Notes under the pieces: model-generated | Told to the model about the DNA's origin: nothing | The model's database searches: none | Seen by the model: only the letters and a program-made list of their open reading frames with translations | Translations under genes and position numbers: made by a program | DNA from: Escherichia phage CMSTMSU | Reading direction: 5' to 3' (one strand) | Sequence record: MH494197.1 | Length of the DNA stretch: 64,000 nt | Shown here: one piece after another, positions 6,233-64,000 of the stretch | How the letters are laid out: every line of letters begins with the position of its first letter | Numbering within the stretch: position 1 is the first letter of the stretch

Positions 6233-6786
6233 TCATCCTCCTAAATTGCTGTTTTGTAATGAAATCAAAAATGTATCATGAACGTAGTTTTCGAATTCAT
6301 GTGCAAAGAATCCAAACTCAACTCCTGTGATTTCAAACTCAACACCAACCATCTTACCATGTTCATTGTTCTGAAGTAAAGTGTTAAAGAATGCTTCGCC
6401 CTTTCCGTGCACAATATGCAACTGGAATGATTGGCATAAATTTCTTTTCAACTCCATTTTCTTCGTATGGGTGATTCATGAAGCGAGGAACAGTGTCAAG
6501 CATCTCATCAGAAATTCCGTATAGCATCTACATACAAACCACGGTTCTGTAAATCAGTTGGGTCTTTCACAAGGTTAGTTGTGTCTTCGCCAATTGCTGC
6601 AAAAATATTTTGACGCAAGCCAAATATTTCACCGAGTGTTCCGTTATCAATTTGCGTGTAACTTCTTGGATTCTTAGAAACTGACACCAATGAACCTGCT
6701 GGTAAAACTTCACGGTATAATATATCATACTGCAAGTTACCTTGGTTGTCAAGTGCTGACATTACTTTATAGTTTCCCATTACCAT
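6233..6786 (-). CDS. one or two hypothetical proteins
   Basis: ORF 6508..6786 followed by MLYGISDEML.. and ORF 6233..6457 in a shifted frame. Confidence 0.3.
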
Positions 6787-6879
6787 TCTAAATTTTCCAT
6801 CAGGTATAGTTGCACCAGTTTGGTTTATGATATTTTCCCTAAGTACTTTTTAATATCACTCAACGTAGTGTAAGTATAG

Positions 6880-8638
6880 TTCTGACTCAAAAGTTTTCTT
6901 TTAATAAAATACGTGGTACTTTTTGTAACCCGTATCTATCATCTGATTGACGATGGAAAGCTTGATTTGTAAATGATGGTGTACTAATACACTTAAACCA
7001 TTCACGTTCAAAATAAACAGAAGGTACAATATGTGCACTTAAGTAGTTTTGTCCAAAACCACGTACAATTTTAAGTTTAAATAACTTGGACGCAACACCA
7101 CCTTCAGTGTCATATGCTTTGATGTTGAATTCTAAATTTATATCATCATTTGCACTGAAATCTAAACTTTTGCATATGCCGTCCCGACCAAGAACCCATC
7201 TGCGGTGAGGTCCAAACCATATTTGCGAATATCATCAGGTCCACCATCTAATACATAAGATACCTGATTAGTACTGGTAGTTTGTATTTGTGGATAAGTA
7301 CTGTGACCGAAATATTCACCCACATGAATACTACCTAAATCACTATCAGTTGTGAAGTCTATTGAGTTTCCTTCTTCTGCGTTCACTAGAACACGGAACA
7401 TCTTCTCTTCACCTATAATATTCTCACCTAAGCTTGAATCATAATATCCTAAATCAATCCAATCTGAACTTTTAAACACTGGCTTTGTTTCACCTAGATC
7501 ATATTCACCAGAGATTACATATGGATATACAACGTTATCTTTCAACTGATACAAATGATTAGGTAAAGGTTTATCACCATCAGCGTATATACCATCTACA
7601 TTGTCTGGACATACCCACATTTGATATGCTTTGAAACGTTGGTTTATAGCGAAGCGGTCAGTGTCATAACTATATGTACTCAAAATATCAACAATTTCAA
7701 CTTTGAAATATGCATCACATGCATCAGAGTCATATAGGAATGTTTGCAGAAATTGTCCATTTGGGTTGAAAACCAATCCTGAATCTAGTAACTCCCCAGA
7801 GCTAGTTTGAATATTAACCTTAATTTCTTTATTAATACCAAATACAGGCCATATATTATCAATAGGACGTAGGATTGCATAATCATCAGTAATGTGGCGA
7901 GCAGGAACTTCTGCTGGGGTCATATCGAGTAGACGATACGCTGGATAAAATACTCTAGGAGATAGGTCTGTTGATGTATCAGTTCCTAAAATAAATGGAC
8001 GACGGCGACCAAATCCCTGTACAAATAAAGTACTGTTGGAACCGTATTCAATATCGCCAATACAATATAATTTGTCATCATCACCGATTTCGATTCCGGA
8101 GTAACCCACACTTCCTGACTATCATATTCAATTGTTACTTCATTTGAACCAATTTCACCACTAGGGAAATGTTACCATAGTACATAACATTTACTGCTTG
8201 AAGATAAAAGTTAATCTGTTCAGAGTTGTTAAATGTACCATCATCTTTACAATGCAATTTAATAAAATAAACATCTTCGGTATTAGTGCTTGCCGATAGA
8301 TCAAATTGAGTTTTATCAATTTTACATTTGTGCTTACCATTAATCAACTTGTTACCAGTAATACCTGATGATATAGGTGTGAGATTAGATTCATCATTTC
8401 CAACATACACTGCGTAGTGATCTTCTGGTTGAAATACTGCATCAGAACTGTCCAAACCCTGAATAGTTAGAATCATCTCTAAGTATTCGTTTTCATTAAG
8501 TATATAACTATCATCCGTTGTGGTTTCTTTGTTGATACTCAAACGCACAAGAATGTCTTGTCCTTCTTGTATATATCGAGCATCGGCTTTTATATCCCAT
8601 CTAGGGTAAAAGTTGTCATTATAATTCTCCATAGCCAA
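6880..8638 (-). CDS. large hypothetical protein (~580 aa), possibly virion-associated, frameshifted
   Basis: ORFs 8135..8638 and 7162..8109 plus an open frame continuing to ~6880; TATAAATA box just upstream at 8658-8665. Confidence 0.4.
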
Positions 8639-8649
8639 GCTACCATTAT

Positions 8650-10119
8650 CTATAGATTATTTATATAAAGGACAAGGAAGACCCACAAAGGTCTTCCCTG
8701 TTTATAATCAATCTTCAGTTTTGGCGTGAAGTCAATCTTACGTAGTTCTTTCAACTCATCTTTATAGATGTTCCAAATCAAATCATGATTCGACAGGAGA
8801 TTGTTATATTCATCCATTAAATCCAAGTTATGTTGAATATCAGCTAGTACTGATTGATAATTGTCTTGGGTCCAACGATATGATGGGAAGTTTACGATGC
8901 TTTGAATATTCTCATCGGTTGCTTCGATTTCAGTGTTTAATGATTTAACAAACTCAACCATTTCTGAACGGTTAGCAAAACCCTTAACCTTAGCAATCAT
9001 ATCATTATCAAAACATTCTTTGATTAGAATCTTATAACGTACTTCAGCAGCACAATCATCAAGTTTCTTCTCATAGCGTTTCACATAGTATTTGAAACGG
9101 AATTCAACAAAGTCCTTAATCAAATCCATTGTGTTATCATAGACTTTAACCTTACCATTCTCACCTAGAACAGTTAGGATTTGTGTCATCTTCTTATGAA
9201 TGCCAAAGTATTCAATTACATCTTTCTCCACCCATTTAGCAGATGTTCCGCGTGGTAATTTGATTGTAATATCAATAACATCAGTACTATCATTATCATA
9301 ATCACGAATATCACCATCATCGCTCATCTTAATGAGTTTCTCGATGAATTTCTCAATACTGTAGTTAGGTGGTAGACCTGTTACTTTAACAGTACTGGCA
9401 TCAATTACTTGTGCTTTACCATAGAACTCATATTTGTTTTCATCAAGCTTAGTTACGATATCACTTGCACCACATGAAACATAGTATGGAGTCATTTCTT
9501 TTAATGGTTTTTATCAATAGCACGAATACAGTTATCAATAACATCTTCAATCTTATGTGGTAGAATTGTACTCTTATAACCTACTGACATACTATCGTTA
9601 CCAAACAAAGATAGTGGGATAATAGGTAAAAAGAAACTTGGTTCCATTGTAGTACCATCATAGTTCTCTTTCATTGGAATAATGTCAGAGTCACGCAGTA
9701 CTAACATTTCAGTACTTTTATTCTTTTAACATAAGTATAACGAGCAGAAGCTGGAGTACTGTTTACTTGTGTACCAAAACCACCACGTTTACCAATGAGT
9801 GGGTAGTTGTTTACTACTGGTGATGCTAGGTTCTGGAGAGTTCCAGATGCAGATGTATCACCGTGTAGATAGATACCATCACTAATCATTTTACCAGCAC
9901 ATGATACAGTTTTGATTTCACCACTAACTTTTGAGAGGGTGAAGATTGCTTTACGTTGTGAACTCTTAAGGCCATCAATCCCGGGATTGCACGGTCTAGT
10001 GTGTACATTGAATATTCTAGTGATGTGGTATTCACATAATCAGAACTGTTATAATCTAGTAGAGTTAGTGTTTGGTTATCGATGCTTTGATTTTCGGTTT
10101 TTACTTTTAGCCATTCCAT
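8650..10119 (-). CDS. gp52: DNA topoisomerase II medium subunit (T4 gp52-like, GyrA-type)
   Basis: YSMYTLDRAIPGLMALRVHNVK at N-terminus; fragments 9886..10119, 9701..9889, 9501..9707, 8650..9495 in different frames. Confidence 0.8.
8658..8665 (-). promoter_or_regulatory. T4-type late promoter TATAAATA
   Basis: exact TATAAATA on the minus strand about 20 nt upstream of the start of gene 6880..8638, just downstream of hairpin 8676-8697. Confidence 0.4.
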
Positions 10120-10133
10120 TGTCTCTTTGTAAA

Positions 10134-10165
10134 GGGAACACCATGTTCCCCATTAATCTATATTA
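10134..10165 (-). repeat. repeated intergenic element, copy 1: TATAGATTAAT box plus GGGAACA/TGTTCCC hairpin
   Basis: minus-strand sequence AATATAGATTAATGGGGAACATGGTGTTCCC in the 44-nt gap between the two topoisomerase genes. Confidence 0.6.
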
Positions 10166-12158
10166 TTCCATCCAGTTCTTACGATCATCAGCACGTTTCT
10201 TGTTGAAAATCAAATCAAGAGTTTCACCAAGGCGACCATCATCTGTAATCGCTACTGCAACACTGTTAGTGAATGCATCACGGAAGTTTGCTTTTTCTAA
10301 CGTACCCAATCCTTTCGCACGGGTTGCTTTCCAACCTTTCCAATCATCTGGGTTGTATTCATGTACATCATGACCATAGTAGTACTTGGATTCCTTACCT
10401 TTCTCTAGAATGATGAATGGTGTTTTGAATATATACACAAATGGATTCTCTGGGTCTTGGAATAGTTCAGGCCAGAATTTGTATAGGAAGTTACATACTA
10501 AAGCACCAATGTTCTTTCCATCCTCATCTTCGTCGGCACAGATATAAAGCTTACCATAGTTAAGGTCTGCTCTTTCCGCTTTTACACGGAATCAGGTTGA
10601 TACTCGCCATTATATCATGCAATGCCATTGAATCCATTAATTCTTTGGTTTTCTCATTACCACTGACGTTCATAATTTTACCACGCAATGGTAGAATACC
10701 ATGAACTTTAGGATCACGAGCACTCGCCATGTTGGAAATAGCAGAATCACCCTCAGCAATTAGTAGGATGCATTTGGAACGATCCGTACCTGTACTGTCC
10801 AATAGTTTTGCAACTTTACCTTTCAGTAGTTTTTAGCTAGACGGCGATCTTCTTCTGCATCTTTCTTGTTGGTACGAGCAGCACAGCGTTCAAAAATTTC
10901 ATCAATCCACTCTTTGTTCTTCTTGACTAATTCATCGAACCATTCAGAATTCATCGCTTGTTGAATTGGACGAATAACGTTTTCGTTGGTTAGTTTTGAT
11001 TTAATCTGTGAGTTGAATGATGGTGCTTTCATCGTTGTTACGTTATAAATCAACAGACCTTCTTCAATATCAGAGCGGTTAGGTTTCATCTTGCGTTTCT
11101 TTGATTCTTTCTCTAGAGCAGTTCCTACTCCTAATGAGAAGAATTTCTTGAATGTATCAAGATGTGTACCACCATCAAATGCTGGGGCATTGTTAACCAA
11201 ACCATGCATATGGAAGTTATTGTTCATACCCGATACTGCATTAGGAACAATGTAGAAAGTACTGTTAAAGTTGAATGATTCATCTTTAACGTTCAATTGC
11301 ATCAGTTTAGATGCGTTGAATAGTGCTTTTTCGGTAGTTCCTTTAATTGCAATACGCTTACCGTTAAGGAAAATCTTATAGGTAGGGTTAGCAGCAGACA
11401 TTTCTTTCAAAATACTGTATAGCAATTCGGTTGGTAGTTTACGGTTCGGAAATACCTCAGAACTCAAAGTGAAGCGAATTGTTGTTCCAGTCTTATCTGC
11501 TTGAACCTTACGAATAGTTGGTTCATGTACATGAAGTTCAGGAAACATAATAGTTCCTTCTTCGAACTTCTGATTGAACTTATAAAACCGTCATAACCGT
11601 CATTGCTACTTTGTGTTTTATACGGGCGACCTTGGCGATGGATTTCAAGTTCAGCTTTAGAACTTACAATCATTGCAACTGAACCACCCAAACCATTCTG
11701 ACCGATTGTTTCATCACGCTTCGAATCATCAAAGTTACGACCAGTTTTAGTTTCAGTCATTACCATTGTACATAGGTTTTTCTGATACTCAGGAACATAG
11801 TCAATTGGAATACCACGTCCATTATCACTGATCTCAAAGGATAACTCTTCCTCATTGAAATCAACTTTGAGTACTGGCTCTTTTGTACCAGCTTTTTAAA
11901 TTCATCTAAGCTGTTATCGATAATTTCACGAGTAGCAGTTAGAATTGCAGGAACCCACTCAACGTTTTTAACTTCATATCCAGACTCACCAAAGATCAGT
12001 ACTTGACTTTCGTGAACAGAACGTGAACCCAGATACATCTCAGTACGCAAGCGAGCATGTTGATAATCGTTTAGACGTTGTACATCATGTTCCTGAAGAA
12101 CAGCACTTTCTTTCTTAGCCATTTGAATTCCTTTTAATGTCTCTTTGTCATGCAACAT
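10163..12158 (-). CDS. gp39: DNA topoisomerase II large subunit (gp39 plus gp60 equivalent in one gene, GyrB-type)
   Basis: GHKL ATPase region, Toprim ILLIAEGDSA, C-terminal RAKGLGTLE; five fragments 11760..12158, 11464..11766, 10823..11548, 10560..10802, 10163..10438 in shifted frames. Confidence 0.8.
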
Positions 12159-12191
12159 TGTATCATCAATGCTTTGTTTGTCTCAAAAATA

Positions 12192-12212
12192 TCGGGACAT
12201 TAAATGCCCCGA
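12192..12212 (-). terminator. rho-independent terminator
   Basis: CGGGACAT-TAA-ATGCCCCG hairpin followed on the minus strand by ATATTTTTGAG. Confidence 0.45.
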
Positions 12213-12218
12213 CAATTA

Positions 12219-24110: not shown

Positions 24111-24130
24111 ATATATTCCTTTATATTTGG

Positions 24131-24146
24131 AAAGATTAATCCGCCG
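24131..24146 (-). promoter_or_regulatory. intercistronic hairpin between nrdA and nrdB
   Basis: ATCCGC-CGAA-GCGGAT stem-loop between the nrdA stop (24161) and the nrdB RBS. Confidence 0.35.
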
Positions 24147-24160
24147 AAGCGGATCTTTAA

Positions 24161-39167: not shown

Positions 39168-39593
39168 TTAGTACTGGGAATCTTCATCTTCATCGTAGTA
39201 ATCTTCTTCATCTTCATCGGATGTACCATAGAATTCAAGACCATACGTTTCACACATTTCTTGAATCTTATCAACATCAGTATCTAAGTAAGAATCAAAA
39301 TTACCACTAAGACTAACAACATCAATAAACGTTGTAGTATCAGTACTTGCATAGATGATATCATATTTTAATGATTCAACTTTCGAGTCAATTCTGGTTT
39401 GCAATTCATAGATATTAATCCATGAATTAGTGTCAATATTACATCTCCAAACATTAGTATCGTCAGTTTCTAGTTCAGGTATATAGTCAAGTGAAGATAC
39501 CATGTCATCCATAATACCATCATTCAACAATACATCAATTACATCTAACGTTTCTTGGTCACAGATAAAAGCAATACTAGATCTTAATTCCAT
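39168..39593 (-). CDS. acidic hypothetical protein (141 aa)
   Basis: intact ORF, DE-rich C-terminus. Confidence 0.45.
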   Translation of the reverse strand: MELRSSIAFICDQETLDVIDVLLNDGIMDDMVSSLDYIPELETDDTNVWRCNIDTNSWINIYELQTRIDSKVESLKYDIIYASTDTTTFIDVVSLSGNFDSYLDTDVDKIQEMCETYGLEFYGTSDEDEEDYYDEDEDSQY

Positions 39594-39648
39594 TTTTATT
39601 TTACTTCCTTGTTGTTGTCATACGACACATTATATCATGCACAGCGGA

Positions 39649-41125
39649 TTATCCCGCTGTATTTTCCCAATCCTTAACATCTATGATACTATGAGGATAT
39701 TGTGCTTCCTTGTAGTATTGTAAACGTTCACGTAAGTGTTTTGCACTATATTTGTTTGTACCACTGATATCAAAGATTTCCACGTGGTCTTTGTCTTCTG
39801 CTCGACGCAACCCACGACCAATGGACTGTATGGTACGAACGAAGCTCTTTCCGGTTCGATTAGAACAACATTATACAAACGAGAAATACTGATACCAGTA
39901 CTTGCTACCCCATAGGTTGCAATGAGTATTTTGTTATCAGCCCAGCGAATTTCACCATATGAAGATTCACGATCTTTCTTTTGGTTTCACCACGAACAAA
40001 TTCTGACTTAGGAATACCCAAAAATTCACAAAGTAATTCACCAGCTTCAAGTCTATCAACCAGTACTAAAGTGTTTCCAGATTCTGCTAACGCACCTATC
40101 AGTGATGCTACATATGCCATTCTATCACGGTCAGTAACTAAGTACTTCAATTCTTCTGCATATGACGCGAACTTTAAATTACTTTTAAGTTTAATACAGT
40201 TCACATTACATGTGCTTAGTATTTTTTATCTTGTAATTCTTTAGCTGTGATTTTAAATATCACATCGCCAACGTTACATTTAATCTTCGCAGCGACAACT
40301 TGGTCTTTAGGATTGTACCAGTTAATCCCCAGCGAAGTGGGACGTTATTCATAACTTTAGAGAGTACTTGAACTAATGCATCACCACCAGCACCTTGACA
40401 CTCATCAACAATCACACAAACCACACCATCAATAAAGTCATGAACGTCTTGTTCAGTCAGTTCAATTTCACCTTTCTTTGTTTTCTTCCACAAAGAGTTG
40501 AATGACTGCCGTAGTGATTGTGTGTTGGTGACCAAAGTCTTTCTGTGCACCATAGAACACTCCAGTGTCAAGACCACACATAACATAGTCATCATATGTT
40601 TGCTGCACCAAATCAGTACTGGGTACGATAATCACAGAACGTCCATACTCCTGTACCTTCTTGGATAATGCTGCTGTGATGAGCGTTTTACCAGCCCCTG
40701 TAGCTGCTAATAATAAACCATGTGGGTTTGCAAGGCAAGCATTAACTGCGTTCACCTGATGCTCTCTGAGCTTGATTGACTTACCTTCCATGTGGTGTCC
40801 AGCACCAAACACAACATCACTAAAAATATCTTCATCAATTGGTTCAAAATTGAATCCGTAATTGACACGATGATCTTCAAGTTCAATATCAATTTTGCTT
40901 CATCTAAGATTGGCAACAACTTATCCAACATGTGGTAGTAAGTACTGCCACCTAAGTTCATAAACTGTACCTTACCATCCCAACGACCAATACGACCAGC
41001 AGGGGTGAACTTAGCGTATGGAAGTACATATTCTGTTGCACGAATCATCTTCTGACGAATTGAGGATCTAGTCCCTCAAATTTACAATTAACCTCGTCCA
41101 GTAAGGTTAGCTTACAAGTTTTCAT
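39649..41125 (-). CDS. uvsW: UvsW-like SF2 DNA helicase, frameshifted
   Basis: N-terminal RIGRWDGKVQFMN, Walker A LAATGAGKTLI, VIVDECQGAGG, motif VI QSIGRGLRR; five fragments. Confidence 0.8.
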
Positions 41126-41140
41126 CCATGAATACCTTTA

Positions 41141-41959
41141 TTAATTAGTTCGAGTATTATATTCGTACTCAAATGTATATACTAAATCTTTATCACAGTT
41201 TGGGTTACTTGCATCAAGAATATCACTGTTAGTAATCATCCATTCAATATAGTTCAATGGAACAGTTTCCATTGGTTCGCCTTTGTGTTTACCAAATGGC
41301 ATGAATTTATAACGCATTGGTGTATTACAGAATGTTACGATTTGTTCACCAATGTCACCATTAGGGTCAATATGTCCACGTTCAATCGCAACTTCAATCA
41401 ATTTGATTAGAACTTGATAACACATAAACACGTCATCTTTTGCTGCGTGAGCATTGACTGCACGATGTACATCACGATAGCAACCAAATTTATACCACAA
41501 ATAACTTAGAGTTAAGTTTTTGAATTCAGTGTCTTCTGCAAACATCTTCTTAGCTAAACGAAGGGTACAAATCCATTTATCTTCATCGAGCAAGTACTGC
41601 GAAACTGAGTTACGATATTTATATTCGTTATCTACCATCATTCGGCGGTCAAATTGAACGTTGTGTCCAATAAAATAATTACGACACCCCATTAGTGCGT
41701 CAATGTTTTCTAAGTCATCTTTATATCCAATGCAGTTTGCTACATCTTCAGTACTGATAAAATGCACAGCACTTGCTTCTGGTGGTATATCTTTTAGTGG
41801 TTTATAACGCAAAGTGTAGTTATCAATAGTATCAATATTCTCATGTGCACCGTGAGGATATGAAATACTAAATTCAATAATATCATCTTCACTTTCTACA
41901 CCAGTCGTTTCGGTGTCTAGTACTGATACGTTTGATAGGAACTCATCTAATTTTGTCAT
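41141..41959 (-). CDS. DnaQ-like 3-prime to 5-prime exonuclease (DEDDh family, DexA-like)
   Basis: LDTETTG, GHNVQFD, HRAVNAHAAKDD; intact 272-aa ORF. Confidence 0.7.
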   Translation of the reverse strand: MTKLDEFLSNVSVLDTETTGVESEDDIIEFSISYPHGAHENIDTIDNYTLRYKPLKDIPPEASAVHFISTEDVANCIGYKDDLENIDALMGCRNYFIGHNVQFDRRMMVDNEYKYRNSVSQYLLDEDKWICTLRLAKKMFAEDTEFKNLTLSYLWYKFGCYRDVHRAVNAHAAKDDVFMCYQVLIKLIEVAIERGHIDPNGDIGEQIVTFCNTPMRYKFMPFGKHKGEPMETVPLNYIEWMITNSDILDASNPNCDKDLVYTFEYEYNTRTN

Positions 41960-52785: not shown

Positions 52786-52817
52786 GGGGAACTCCATGTT
52801 CCCCATTATTTATATTA
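52786..52817 (-). repeat. repeated intergenic element, copy 2: TATAAATA box plus GGGGAAC/GTTCCCC hairpin
   Basis: minus-strand sequence ATATAAATAATGGGGAACATGGAGTTCCCC, near-identical to 10134-10165. Confidence 0.6.
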
Positions 52818-53544
52818 GCAACCAGTTACGTAAATCTTGTATACTGCAATACCAGTGTCTAGAGTTACGTTTAGCATACCAGTTTTGGTAATACCTAGGG
52901 TAACAGATTCTGCGTTAGAAACGCGGGATAGAGCTTGTAGAACACGGTCAATGTTATAACCAAAACCAAGACCTAGTTCACCTTCAGTTTTAGAGAATGC
53001 TAGTGCACCAACGTGGTTACTTTTGTTCTTCTCACCAACGTGGAAGTAAAGAGTATCACCTTCAGTGTATGGAGTTACTAGAGAACTGAAAGATTTAAAC
53101 ACACCAGAGAAGCTTTTAGTTCCTGAACTTTAGCTGCACTAGGTGTAACCTGTACGTCATATGGTTGTTCGTGGAAACGAGGCTGGGCTGGAATTAGTTT
53201 TTCTGGTTGAACCATGAAAGTAGTGCTTGCATCTTCTGCTTTGAATGCTAGGCTCTTAACTGCACCATCTTTCAAATTAGAAGTGATAGTAGTTCCTTCA
53301 GTACTGTAAGTTTTAGAGACATTAGACCCTGTAGAAGACCTAGGTTACCAAGACCAAAACGACCTTGAACTTCTGGTACGTCTTCTTTAGTGTGAGCACG
53401 CATAACTAGGGTGCGGTCATCGGTGTATGCTTCCATGTAAACACGCTGTCCATCACCACGGTCTTCACTGCTAACTGCGATACAAGAAAAGTCGATGCCG
53501 TTGGTAGTGTTAACTAGGTCACGTAGTACGTTGCGTAGATCCAT
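52815..53544 (-). CDS. probable sliding clamp (T4 gp45-like), frameshifted
   Basis: about 240 aa in three fragments; N-terminal LRDLVNTTNGI resembles T4 gp45 LKNFATINSGI; size and location next to DNA polymerase fit. Confidence 0.4.
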
Positions 53545-59758: not shown

Positions 59759-60082
59759 CTATAGCAAGTCGTTTTCCATATCGTCAAGAACAGAATCAAC
59801 GATGTTCGCTGCTATCTTCTTAGGCATCTTGAACCACTCGGTGTTAGGTTGCCTTACTGCGTTCATTTGTTTTAGTCTTTTGTGAATTTCTTTCTCTGCT
59901 AAACGTGCATCTTCAAAGTGTACTTCATGGTATACCACAAAATCTCTAAAAGGTGTAGCAGTTTGATATGTCCTTAAACGCTCTGTCATTTCAGATTTAC
60001 TGGTAAATCCTATCTTAACATAATCAGGCCATGCATCATTTACTATAACATAACATATCTGTGACATAGAAAATATCTCCAT
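59759..60082 (-). CDS. T5orf172-domain protein (GIY-YIG-like)
   Basis: CYVIVNDAWPDYVKIGFTS...RLRTYQTATPF...EWFKMP is the typical T5orf172 pattern. Confidence 0.55.
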   Translation of the reverse strand: MEIFSMSQICYVIVNDAWPDYVKIGFTSKSEMTERLRTYQTATPFRDFVVYHEVHFEDARLAEKEIHKRLKQMNAVRQPNTEWFKMPKKIAANIVDSVLDDMENDLL

Positions 60083-61776: not shown

Positions 61777-61784
61777 TATTTATA
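61777..61784 (-). promoter_or_regulatory. T4-type late promoter TATAAATA upstream of the capsid gene
   Basis: exact TATAAATA on the minus strand 45 nt upstream of the gp23-like start. Confidence 0.5.
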
Positions 61785-62978: not shown

Positions 62979-62986
62979 TATTTATA
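62979..62986 (-). promoter_or_regulatory. T4-type late promoter TATAAATA upstream of the scaffold gene
   Basis: exact TATAAATA on the minus strand 48 nt upstream of the scaffold start. Confidence 0.5.
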
Positions 62987-63636: not shown

Positions 63637-64000
63637 TTATTTAGTGTTAGATTTTTGGTTGTGATTTTGGTAGTGGAGAACGAGATTTAGAAGCGGTATT
63701 TTTGGCTTCGCAACATCTTTCATTTCGCCACGAGCATTTTTACCTAGGTCTTCATCAGTGTGGGACATAGCATCTTCGTTTTCAAAATCATAATCTACTT
63801 GTTTTTCGGAAGCTTTAGCGAATTTCACTGGAGCAACACCTTGAACTGGAGATTTAGCTTCTGGAGCAACTGGGGACTTGGTATTAACGCCAGCTTTTTC
63901 TTTCTTATCAACCGCAGCAACTTGCTTAAGTTTGAAAGACTCACCAACTTTCTCATCACCGAATTGTACATCAGCAAATTCGTCTTCAGATTCTTCACCA
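63637..64000 (-). CDS. prohead core-type acidic protein, partial (runs off window end)
   Basis: open frame from the window edge to 63637; acidic, upstream of the protease as T4 gp67/gp68 are. Confidence 0.35.
   Translation of the reverse strand, partial: GEESEDEFADVQFGDEKVGESFKLKQVAAVDKKEKAGVNTKSPVAPEAKSPVQGVAPVKFAKASEKQVDYDFENEDAMSHTDEDLGKNARGEMKDVAKPKIPLLNLVLHYQNHNQKSNTK

Follow-up and report, generated by a model that had tools for sequence, protein, structure and literature searches.

A sequencing error, a putative terminator and a putative T4-type late promoter at the end of the topoisomerase II genes of an Asteriusvirus-type jumbo coliphage

In the 64,000 nt of phage DNA analysed here (the window), ORF 8650..9495 (minus strand, 281 aa) ends in a hydrophobic tail that overlies a hairpin and a TATAAATA box. 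This arrangement is very probably explained as a whole by a one-base sequencing error together with a terminator hairpin and a T4-type late promoter in the 88-nt spacer between the genes for the topoisomerase II medium subunit and a virion structural protein. The overlap of the ORF end with both signals had been noticed in the original prediction, and the presence of the 8-bp-stem hairpin and of the box within that end is borne out by coordinates and fold statistics. The tail length given there, 15 codons, does not hold, the out-of-frame part comprising 22 codons from position 8718. The features are collected in Table 1.

Table 1. Positions of the signals and genes around the topoisomerase II medium-subunit gene, in window coordinates
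Feature	Position	Strand	Basis or remark
Terminator-like hairpin TGTCGGGGCATTTAATGTCCCGATA followed by a T run	12190..12214	minus	Would close the preceding structural-gene unit, upstream of the large subunit
Promoter-like TGAGACA-N13-TGATACAAT (29 nt)	12157..12185	minus	Upstream of the topoisomerase II large subunit
Topoisomerase II medium subunit (T4 gp52-like), true CDS	8708..10114	minus	Mapped from the fEgEco12 annotation; 470 aa in relatives
A4 run, A5 in fEgEco12	8719..8722	minus	Alignment and indel list (A deleted in ...CACGCCAAAAACTGA)
Spurious out-of-frame tail, LKIDYKQGRPLWVFLVLYINNL plus TAG	8650..8718	minus	Not protein-coding; missing from all 13 homologues
True TGA stop of the medium subunit	8708..8710	minus	Out of frame in the window
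Hairpin with tail UUGUCCUUUAUA after it, putative intrinsic terminator of the topoisomerase II unit	8672..8701	minus	Fold, conservation and annotated counterparts
TATAAATA box, putative late promoter	8658..8665	minus	38 nt before the true virion-gene ATG; exact T4 late consensus
GGAG ribosome-binding site	8627..8630	minus	7 nt before the ATG; GGAG kept in all relatives
Virion structural protein, true CDS	6233..8619	minus	fEgEco12 g420, 798 aa; PHROG 13911, E = 0
C3 run, C4 in relatives	8604..8606	minus	Alignment and indel list; 13 nt into the virion-protein gene

The broken frame of the medium-subunit gene

The window derives from an Asteriusvirus-type jumbo coliphage of the PBECO4/121Q group, with 98.5-99% identity to fEgEco12 and EC.P1. 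Its GC content is about 36%, and nearly all genes are carried on the minus strand. Over region 8100-12200, identity reaches 97.5-99.1% to nine Escherichia jumbo phages, including EC.P1, fEgEco12, BF17 and WPEC3/5, and about 86% to the PBECO4 group (genus Asteriusvirus), with weaker matches to other Rak2-like jumbo phage genera. The gene order in the relatives, all on a single strand, is topoisomerase II large subunit, medium subunit of the same enzyme (T4 gp52-like), virion structural protein.

In the window, the medium-subunit gene is split by six deleted bases into ORFs 9886..10119, 9701..9889, 9501..9707 and 8650..9495, the last of which represents only the C-terminal ~60% of the 470-aa protein. 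This ORF matched the Pfam family DNA_topoisoIV (PF00521) with 78.4 bits (cut-off 31) over profile positions 203-432, and the upstream fragments matched positions 45-95 and 107-170 of the same profile, in order. The likeness to T4 gp52 and the type IIA topoisomerase subunit A family is one of ordered domain fragments, the relatives' gene being annotated as the medium subunit, and no difference from that family remains after repair of the six sequencing deletions.

The C-terminus of ORF 8650..9495 reads ...KLKIDYKQGRPLWVFLVLYINNL*. When the junction was aligned with fEgEco12 and PBECO4, the window was found to read CCAAAACTGAAGATTGA against CCAAAAACTGAAGATTGA in fEgEco12 or, in shorter form, CCAAAACTG against CCAAAAACTG in the relatives. 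The missing A sits 9 nt before the medium-subunit TGA. With A4 the frame misses the TGA at 8710-8708, and the ORF continues to the TAG at 8652-8650, being extended by 66 nt into the 88-nt spacer. With A5 restored, the sequence is read as CCA AAA ACT GAA GAT TGA, giving ...PKTED*, the same end as that of the 470-aa fEgEco12 protein. Correction of the assembly at this base, which had been suggested as a check, thus returns an ORF ending in ...TPKTED* as in fEgEco12. The proposal that the true stop had been lost to an indel is thereby upheld and refined: the indel at 8719-8722 almost certainly arose in sequencing and not by mutation.

The comparison of C-termini covered 13 phages belonging to Asteriusvirus, Alcyoneusvirus, Eneladusvirus and Mimasvirus, together with unclassified phages such as Munch. 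The reference proteins end in ...DFTPKTED* (fEgEco12) and ...DFTPKSDN* (PBECO4), and all 13 homologues stop 3 to 5 residues past the window's frame break. A hydrophobic C-terminal tail was found in none of the 13 (at least four named genera), in agreement with the earlier suspicion that the tail is not real protein; a tail shared with homologues, which would have spoken for a genuine end, was not found in this sample. As written, the C-terminus of the window ORF is not collinear with the homologues, having 22 extra residues, and it becomes collinear once the A is restored; the fault is one of the assembly, not of the gene. The hydrophobic tail is an artefact because the missing A lets the ORF run into the spacer.

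The lost base is one of many. Against fEgEco12, the whole 64,000 nt of the window shows 297 deletion events and a single insertion. Deletions affect 44 of the 47 CCWGG (Dcm) sites of the reference, 22 of its 24 runs of seven identical bases, 54 of 66 six-base runs, 80 of 213 five-base runs and 32 of 708 four-base runs. Oxford Nanopore errors (homopolymer compression and Dcm-methylated CCWGG) produce the same one-directional deletions, with a steep rise with run length. Judged by signature only, we take the pattern to be that of uncorrected nanopore basecalling of DNA from a dcm+ host. The deletions touch 71 of 82 genes, among which are those for the terminase, the major capsid protein and DNA polymerase (11 bases). 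ORFs in the window reach 357 aa at most, against genes of 800-1000 codons in relatives.

It is extremely unlikely, given this genome-wide error pattern, that the missing A is a real mutation in the isolate and that the topoisomerase subunit truly bears a 22-residue hydrophobic C-terminal extension. Some differences must be real, since the window is identical to no database record (best identity 99.1%), but the deletion in question is one of 297 one-directional events concentrated in homopolymers and CCWGG sites. A phage with so many broken essential genes, among them those for DNA polymerase, major capsid protein and terminase, would not be viable. In addition, no net length change is seen at the A-run in the nine closest genomes (spans of 1001 nt against the 1001-nt fEgEco12 query). 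As a practical consequence of a sequencing error on this scale, the window is not annotatable as it stands, because 71 of its 82 genes carry frameshifting deletions; odd ORF ends, short ORFs and apparent gene fusions in it should first be compared with a polished relative.

Two further loci were recorded in the comparison with fEgEco12. The gene g398 of that phage (774 nt, 257 aa; PHROG 3532, function unassigned), which lies between the ribonucleotide reductase large and beta genes, is missing from the window (at ~24121-24160, corresponding to 39567-40340 of the fEgEco12 stretch), a difference of ~790 bp; it may be a mobile insertion. A gene of the GIY-YIG nuclease family (fEgEco12 g352; 59759-60067, minus strand) lies between a hypothetical gene and a tail-fibre gene, is flanked on both sides by ATAAATA boxes and is among the few genes of the window without a deletion.

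The spacer and its hairpin

After repair, the spacer measures 88 nt from the medium-subunit TGA to the virion-gene ATG. Starting at the TGA, it consists of 10 nt, the hairpin, the tail TTGTCCTTTA abutting TATAAATA, and 38 nt that include GGAG, up to the ATG. The same four parts, namely a hairpin, a T-rich tail, an ATAAATA-type box and a GGAG ribosome-binding site, occur in the same order in all 13 relatives. The stems of these relatives (n = 13) are perfect over 7-10 bp, contain 4-6 G-C pairs and start 4-12 nt past the stop, and the 10 nt that follow them hold 4-7 T. The distance from the end of the ATAAATA box (GTAAATA in RaK2) to the ATG is 27-38 nt in all 13, and the records of Muenster, fHe-Yen9-04 and Munch carry annotated ribosome-binding sites.

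The stem sequence itself is specific to the lineage, being GGAAGACC in Asteriusvirus proper, GGAGCAC in RaK2 and Muenster, and AAGGACGC in EJP2, CBB, GAP32, XbC2, SNUABM_50 and fHe-Yen9-04. In Munch the stem is AAGGATGC; relative to the AAGGACGC type, both sides of a pair have changed, from C-G to T-A, and pairing is preserved. The loops vary freely among the relatives. The 13 hairpins were compared by a direct perfect-stem scan; MAFFT alignment followed by a consensus fold of the same 13 recovered no structure, the arms being placed out of register. On comparative grounds, lineage-specific stems combined with free loops are the pattern expected of selection for pairing and not for sequence, and coding constraint is ruled out.

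With a stable hairpin shortly after an A-run, the site has a superficial likeness to a frameshift cassette, and a programmed ribosomal frameshift was considered, with the A-run as slippery site and the hairpin ~20 nt on as stimulator, giving a minor long isoform. The chance of this is practically nil. PBECO4 and 121Q are without the A-run and read CCTAAATCAGAC; the spacers are 73, 81, 85, 87, 88 and 93 nt long and so vary by non-multiples of three; the stems differ completely between lineages, as would any tail they encoded; and the hairpin lies past the zero-frame stop in all relatives. Lack of conservation of the A-run, spacer lengths that do not keep to multiples of three, and lineage-specific stems together exclude programmed frameshifting.

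The core of the hairpin, at 8697-8676, pairs GGAAGACC (8697-8690) with GGTCTTCC (8683-8676) in a perfect 8-bp stem around the loop TTTGTG, and G-U pairs extend it to 13 pairs over 8701-8672. An 81-nt fold around it has a free energy of -27.2 kcal/mol against -13.9 +/- 2.7 for shuffled sequences (z = -5.0), and none of 200 shuffles was as stable. The exact arm pair GGAAGACC/GGTCTTCC occurs once in the window, where no copy is expected. A repeated (REP-like) element was also considered and was rejected, the arm pair being present only once in the window.

Intrinsic terminators are recognised by a GC-rich stem just past the stop codon, 5 bp or longer, that closes a loop of 3-8 nt, and here a stem of 8 bp with five G-C pairs and a 6-nt loop begins 11 nt past the TGA. 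The U-tract UUGUCCUUUAUA contains six T in 10 nt, interrupted by G and CC, and passes a simple terminator scan. Counterparts have been annotated as terminators in related phages. The GenBank record of vB_EcoM_G17 (MK327931) labels the counterpart 'putative transcriptional terminator, -14.00', with ARNOLD as the source; it has the same position and the same GGAAGACC/GGTCTTCC stem, and its loop differs by a few bases. In CBB, the counterpart is listed as Torf325 (Table S8; PMC5259590) and agrees in position and hairpin size, but has its own stem (GGACGC/GCGTCC), a cleaner T-tract and a gap to the box of 22 nt, compared with 11 nt in the window. Furthermore, similar hairpins with a T-run behind them occur in many other spacers of the 67 kb that were compared. 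From these features, the hairpin is most likely an intrinsic terminator, or at least a 3'-end-forming hairpin, of the topoisomerase II unit.

Alternatively, the hairpin could serve to stabilise or process the mRNA 3' end, or to bind a protein, with read-through into the virion-protein gene. Such a role would suit the interrupted T-tract of Asteriusvirus (six T in 10 nt, with G and CC) and the second hairpin with a TTTT tail that lies between the two topoisomerase genes, where transcription is unlikely to end completely. It is nevertheless distinctly unlikely, as the corresponding tract of more distant relatives is a canonical UUUAUUUUU, the counterparts were called terminators in two independent ARNold runs, and the same design of hairpin plus T-run recurs in many other spacers of the genome. 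Termination at the putative terminator may be partial, because the T-tract of Asteriusvirus has interruptions and is weaker than the UUUAUUUUU tract of the Mimasvirus and Eneladusvirus versions.

The box and the virion-protein gene

In T4, late promoters are gp55-dependent and have the consensus TATAAATA (Geiduschek and Kassavetis 2010, as cited in PMC5259590). The window box at 8665-8658 matches that consensus at 8 of 8 positions, stands before a virion-protein gene and has no -35 element, in which it resembles both the T4 late promoter and 'Promoter 3' of CBB and GAP32. In those two phages, an ATAAATA motif was reported upstream of structural genes and likened to the T4 late promoter (PMC5259590). 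The late-promoter table for CBB omits the site upstream of CBB_326 (PMC5259590), and the PA5oct RNA-seq paper describes TATAATA/TTGAC promoters and no late TATAAATA class. Among the papers searched, none reports an experimentally mapped promoter of the ATAAATA class in this phage group.

No raw over-representation of TATAAATA was found in the window, which holds five copies against 7.5 expected. All five are on the coding strand, and in fEgEco12 four of the five are intergenic, 38-59 nt upstream of a gene start. The significance of the box comes from its position and strand, not from its number, because the raw count is not above chance. Three of the other copies (52807-52814, 61777-61784 and 62979-62986, minus strand) lie 44-59 nt upstream of gene starts, and are followed respectively by the genes for a small CxxC-protein (preceding GroES-like and virion-protein genes), the major capsid protein and the outer capsid protein. 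The fifth copy, at 41616-41623, is inside the exonuclease X gene and is probably due to chance.

The shorter motif was examined in 67 kb of fEgEco12, where ATAAATA occurs 15 times, about half the frequency of 7-mers of the same composition. Eleven of these copies (73%) are intergenic, compared with 16% for the control 7-mers and a non-coding fraction of 5.3% (binomial P ~1e-7 to 1e-11), and 10 of the 11 lie at most 70 nt upstream of a start on the same strand. The genes behind the boxes include those for the outer capsid protein, the major capsid protein and a tail fibre, and four structural genes.

A candidate sigma factor is encoded by relatives. CBB was reported to have a gp55-like sigma factor, and its authors found no gp33 or gp45 homologues (PMC5259590). 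In fEgEco12, the 312-aa product of g336 matched two families, PHROG 12791 ('sigma factor for late transcription', E = 1.4e-152) and, over residues 161-295 only, PHROG 234 ('late sigma transcription factor', E = 1.5e-16), its kinship to T4 gp55 being no more than distant. Neither Pfam nor the PDB sequences gave a significant match to g336, the N-terminal half being without a recognisable relative there. The gene adjoins gp47/gp46-like genes and is situated ~11 kb beyond window position 64000 (10975-11913 of a separate fEgEco12 stretch); the gp55-like sigma is confirmed in the closest annotated relative (98.5% identical) only, outside the window. A sliding clamp is annotated in fEgEco12 as g359 (window 52815-53544), in a PHROG without an assigned function.

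Several properties of a T4-type late promoter are found together: a -10-type element without a -35, a position upstream of virion genes, recurrence, and a gp55-family sigma in a relative. The box at 8665-8658 is most likely such a promoter. By analogy with T4, a g336-like sigma would use it, and transcription would start ~6-8 nt downstream.

The box also resembles TATAAT, and its raw counts are not above chance, so that host sigma-70 holoenzyme might read it as a -10-like element (TATAAA), or it might be no more than AT-rich spacer. We regard this as highly unlikely. A sigma-70 scan at 8665-8658 reported no -35/-10 pair, and hence no -35-like hexamer at the site. ATAAATA is rarer than words of the same composition and yet 73% intergenic, against 16% for controls; the motif precedes capsid, tail-fibre and virion-protein genes; and the closest relative encodes a gp55-like sigma. 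The readings as a sigma-70 element and as a stabilising hairpin are both less consistent with the evidence than a late promoter preceded by a terminator. The original prediction, in which the gene downstream has a late promoter placed behind a terminator, is well matched by the sequence as a putative arrangement: the layout is conserved, counterparts are annotated, and a virion gene comes next.

That gene starts at the ATG at 8619-8617 (MTTFTPRWDIK...), and the loss of 10 bases breaks it into pieces in the window. ORF 8135..8638 (MAMENYNDNF...) owes its TTG start to an artefact, a C4 to C3 deletion having fused an upstream frame to the true gene. The product of the orthologue in CBB, CBB_326, was detected in virions by mass spectrometry.

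Proposed transcription of the topoisomerase II unit and its setting in the family

Signals are also present upstream of the large-subunit gene. The T run that follows the hairpin at 12190..12214 is T7 in relatives and T5 in the window, and the orthologue of this hairpin in CBB is Torf323 (PMC5259590). The adjacent promoter-like site shares its 29-nt length and its layout with 'Promoter 1' of CBB and GAP32 (TGAAACG...TGnTATAAT). In CBB, 'Promoter 1' (Porf_324, Table S6) is located upstream of CBB_324 and after Torf323, CBB_324 preceding the medium-subunit gene CBB_325 (PMC5259590). The two topoisomerase genes appear to make up a unit with its own promoter, flanked by terminator-like hairpins and placed between virion-protein genes, because a hairpin and a promoter-like site stand upstream of them in a layout like that of CBB.

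A third hairpin was observed at ~10130-10155 (minus strand), in the 50-nt spacer between the large- and medium-subunit genes, where fEgEco12 reads GGGGAACATGGTGTTCCCC followed by TTTT; two bases at the 3' edge of this hairpin are deleted in the window. It may act as an attenuating terminator inside the topoisomerase II unit.

Taken as a whole, the proposed course of events is as follows. The base lost from the A5 run lets the medium-subunit ORF run 66 nt into the spacer on paper. In the phage, the topoisomerase II transcript would start at the promoter-like site after the preceding terminator (12214-12157) and end at the 8672..8701 hairpin. The TATAAATA box, overlapping the terminator tail, would be read by host RNA polymerase together with the phage gp55-like late sigma. 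By T4 precedent, the late start would lie ~6-8 nt downstream of the box, at ~8650-8652, leaving a leader of ~30 nt with the GGAG ribosome-binding site for the virion structural protein gene. The sequences directly show the frameshift, the error signature, and the conservation and positional enrichment of the signals; termination at the hairpin, use of the promoter, the sigma involved and the start site are what we infer from them.

The gap between stem and box is 11 nt in Asteriusvirus, compared with 21-22 nt in Mimasvirus and Eneladusvirus. It is a doubtful possibility, put forward tentatively, that terminator and late promoter have been compressed in Asteriusvirus, with the box forming part of the U/A-rich tail, so that one element would stop middle transcripts and start late ones. 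If this were true, the weakened T-tract could permit regulated read-through into the virion-protein gene.

The terminator counterpart, the ATAAATA late motif and the gp55-like sigma are already published or annotated for the group, and the feature is in this respect an ordinary and known one. The arrangement of topoisomerase II genes and late promoter has likewise been described previously for relatives. The site confirms the Rak2-like organisation, in which the topoisomerase II genes are placed amid virion genes and the next virion gene has its own late-promoter box.
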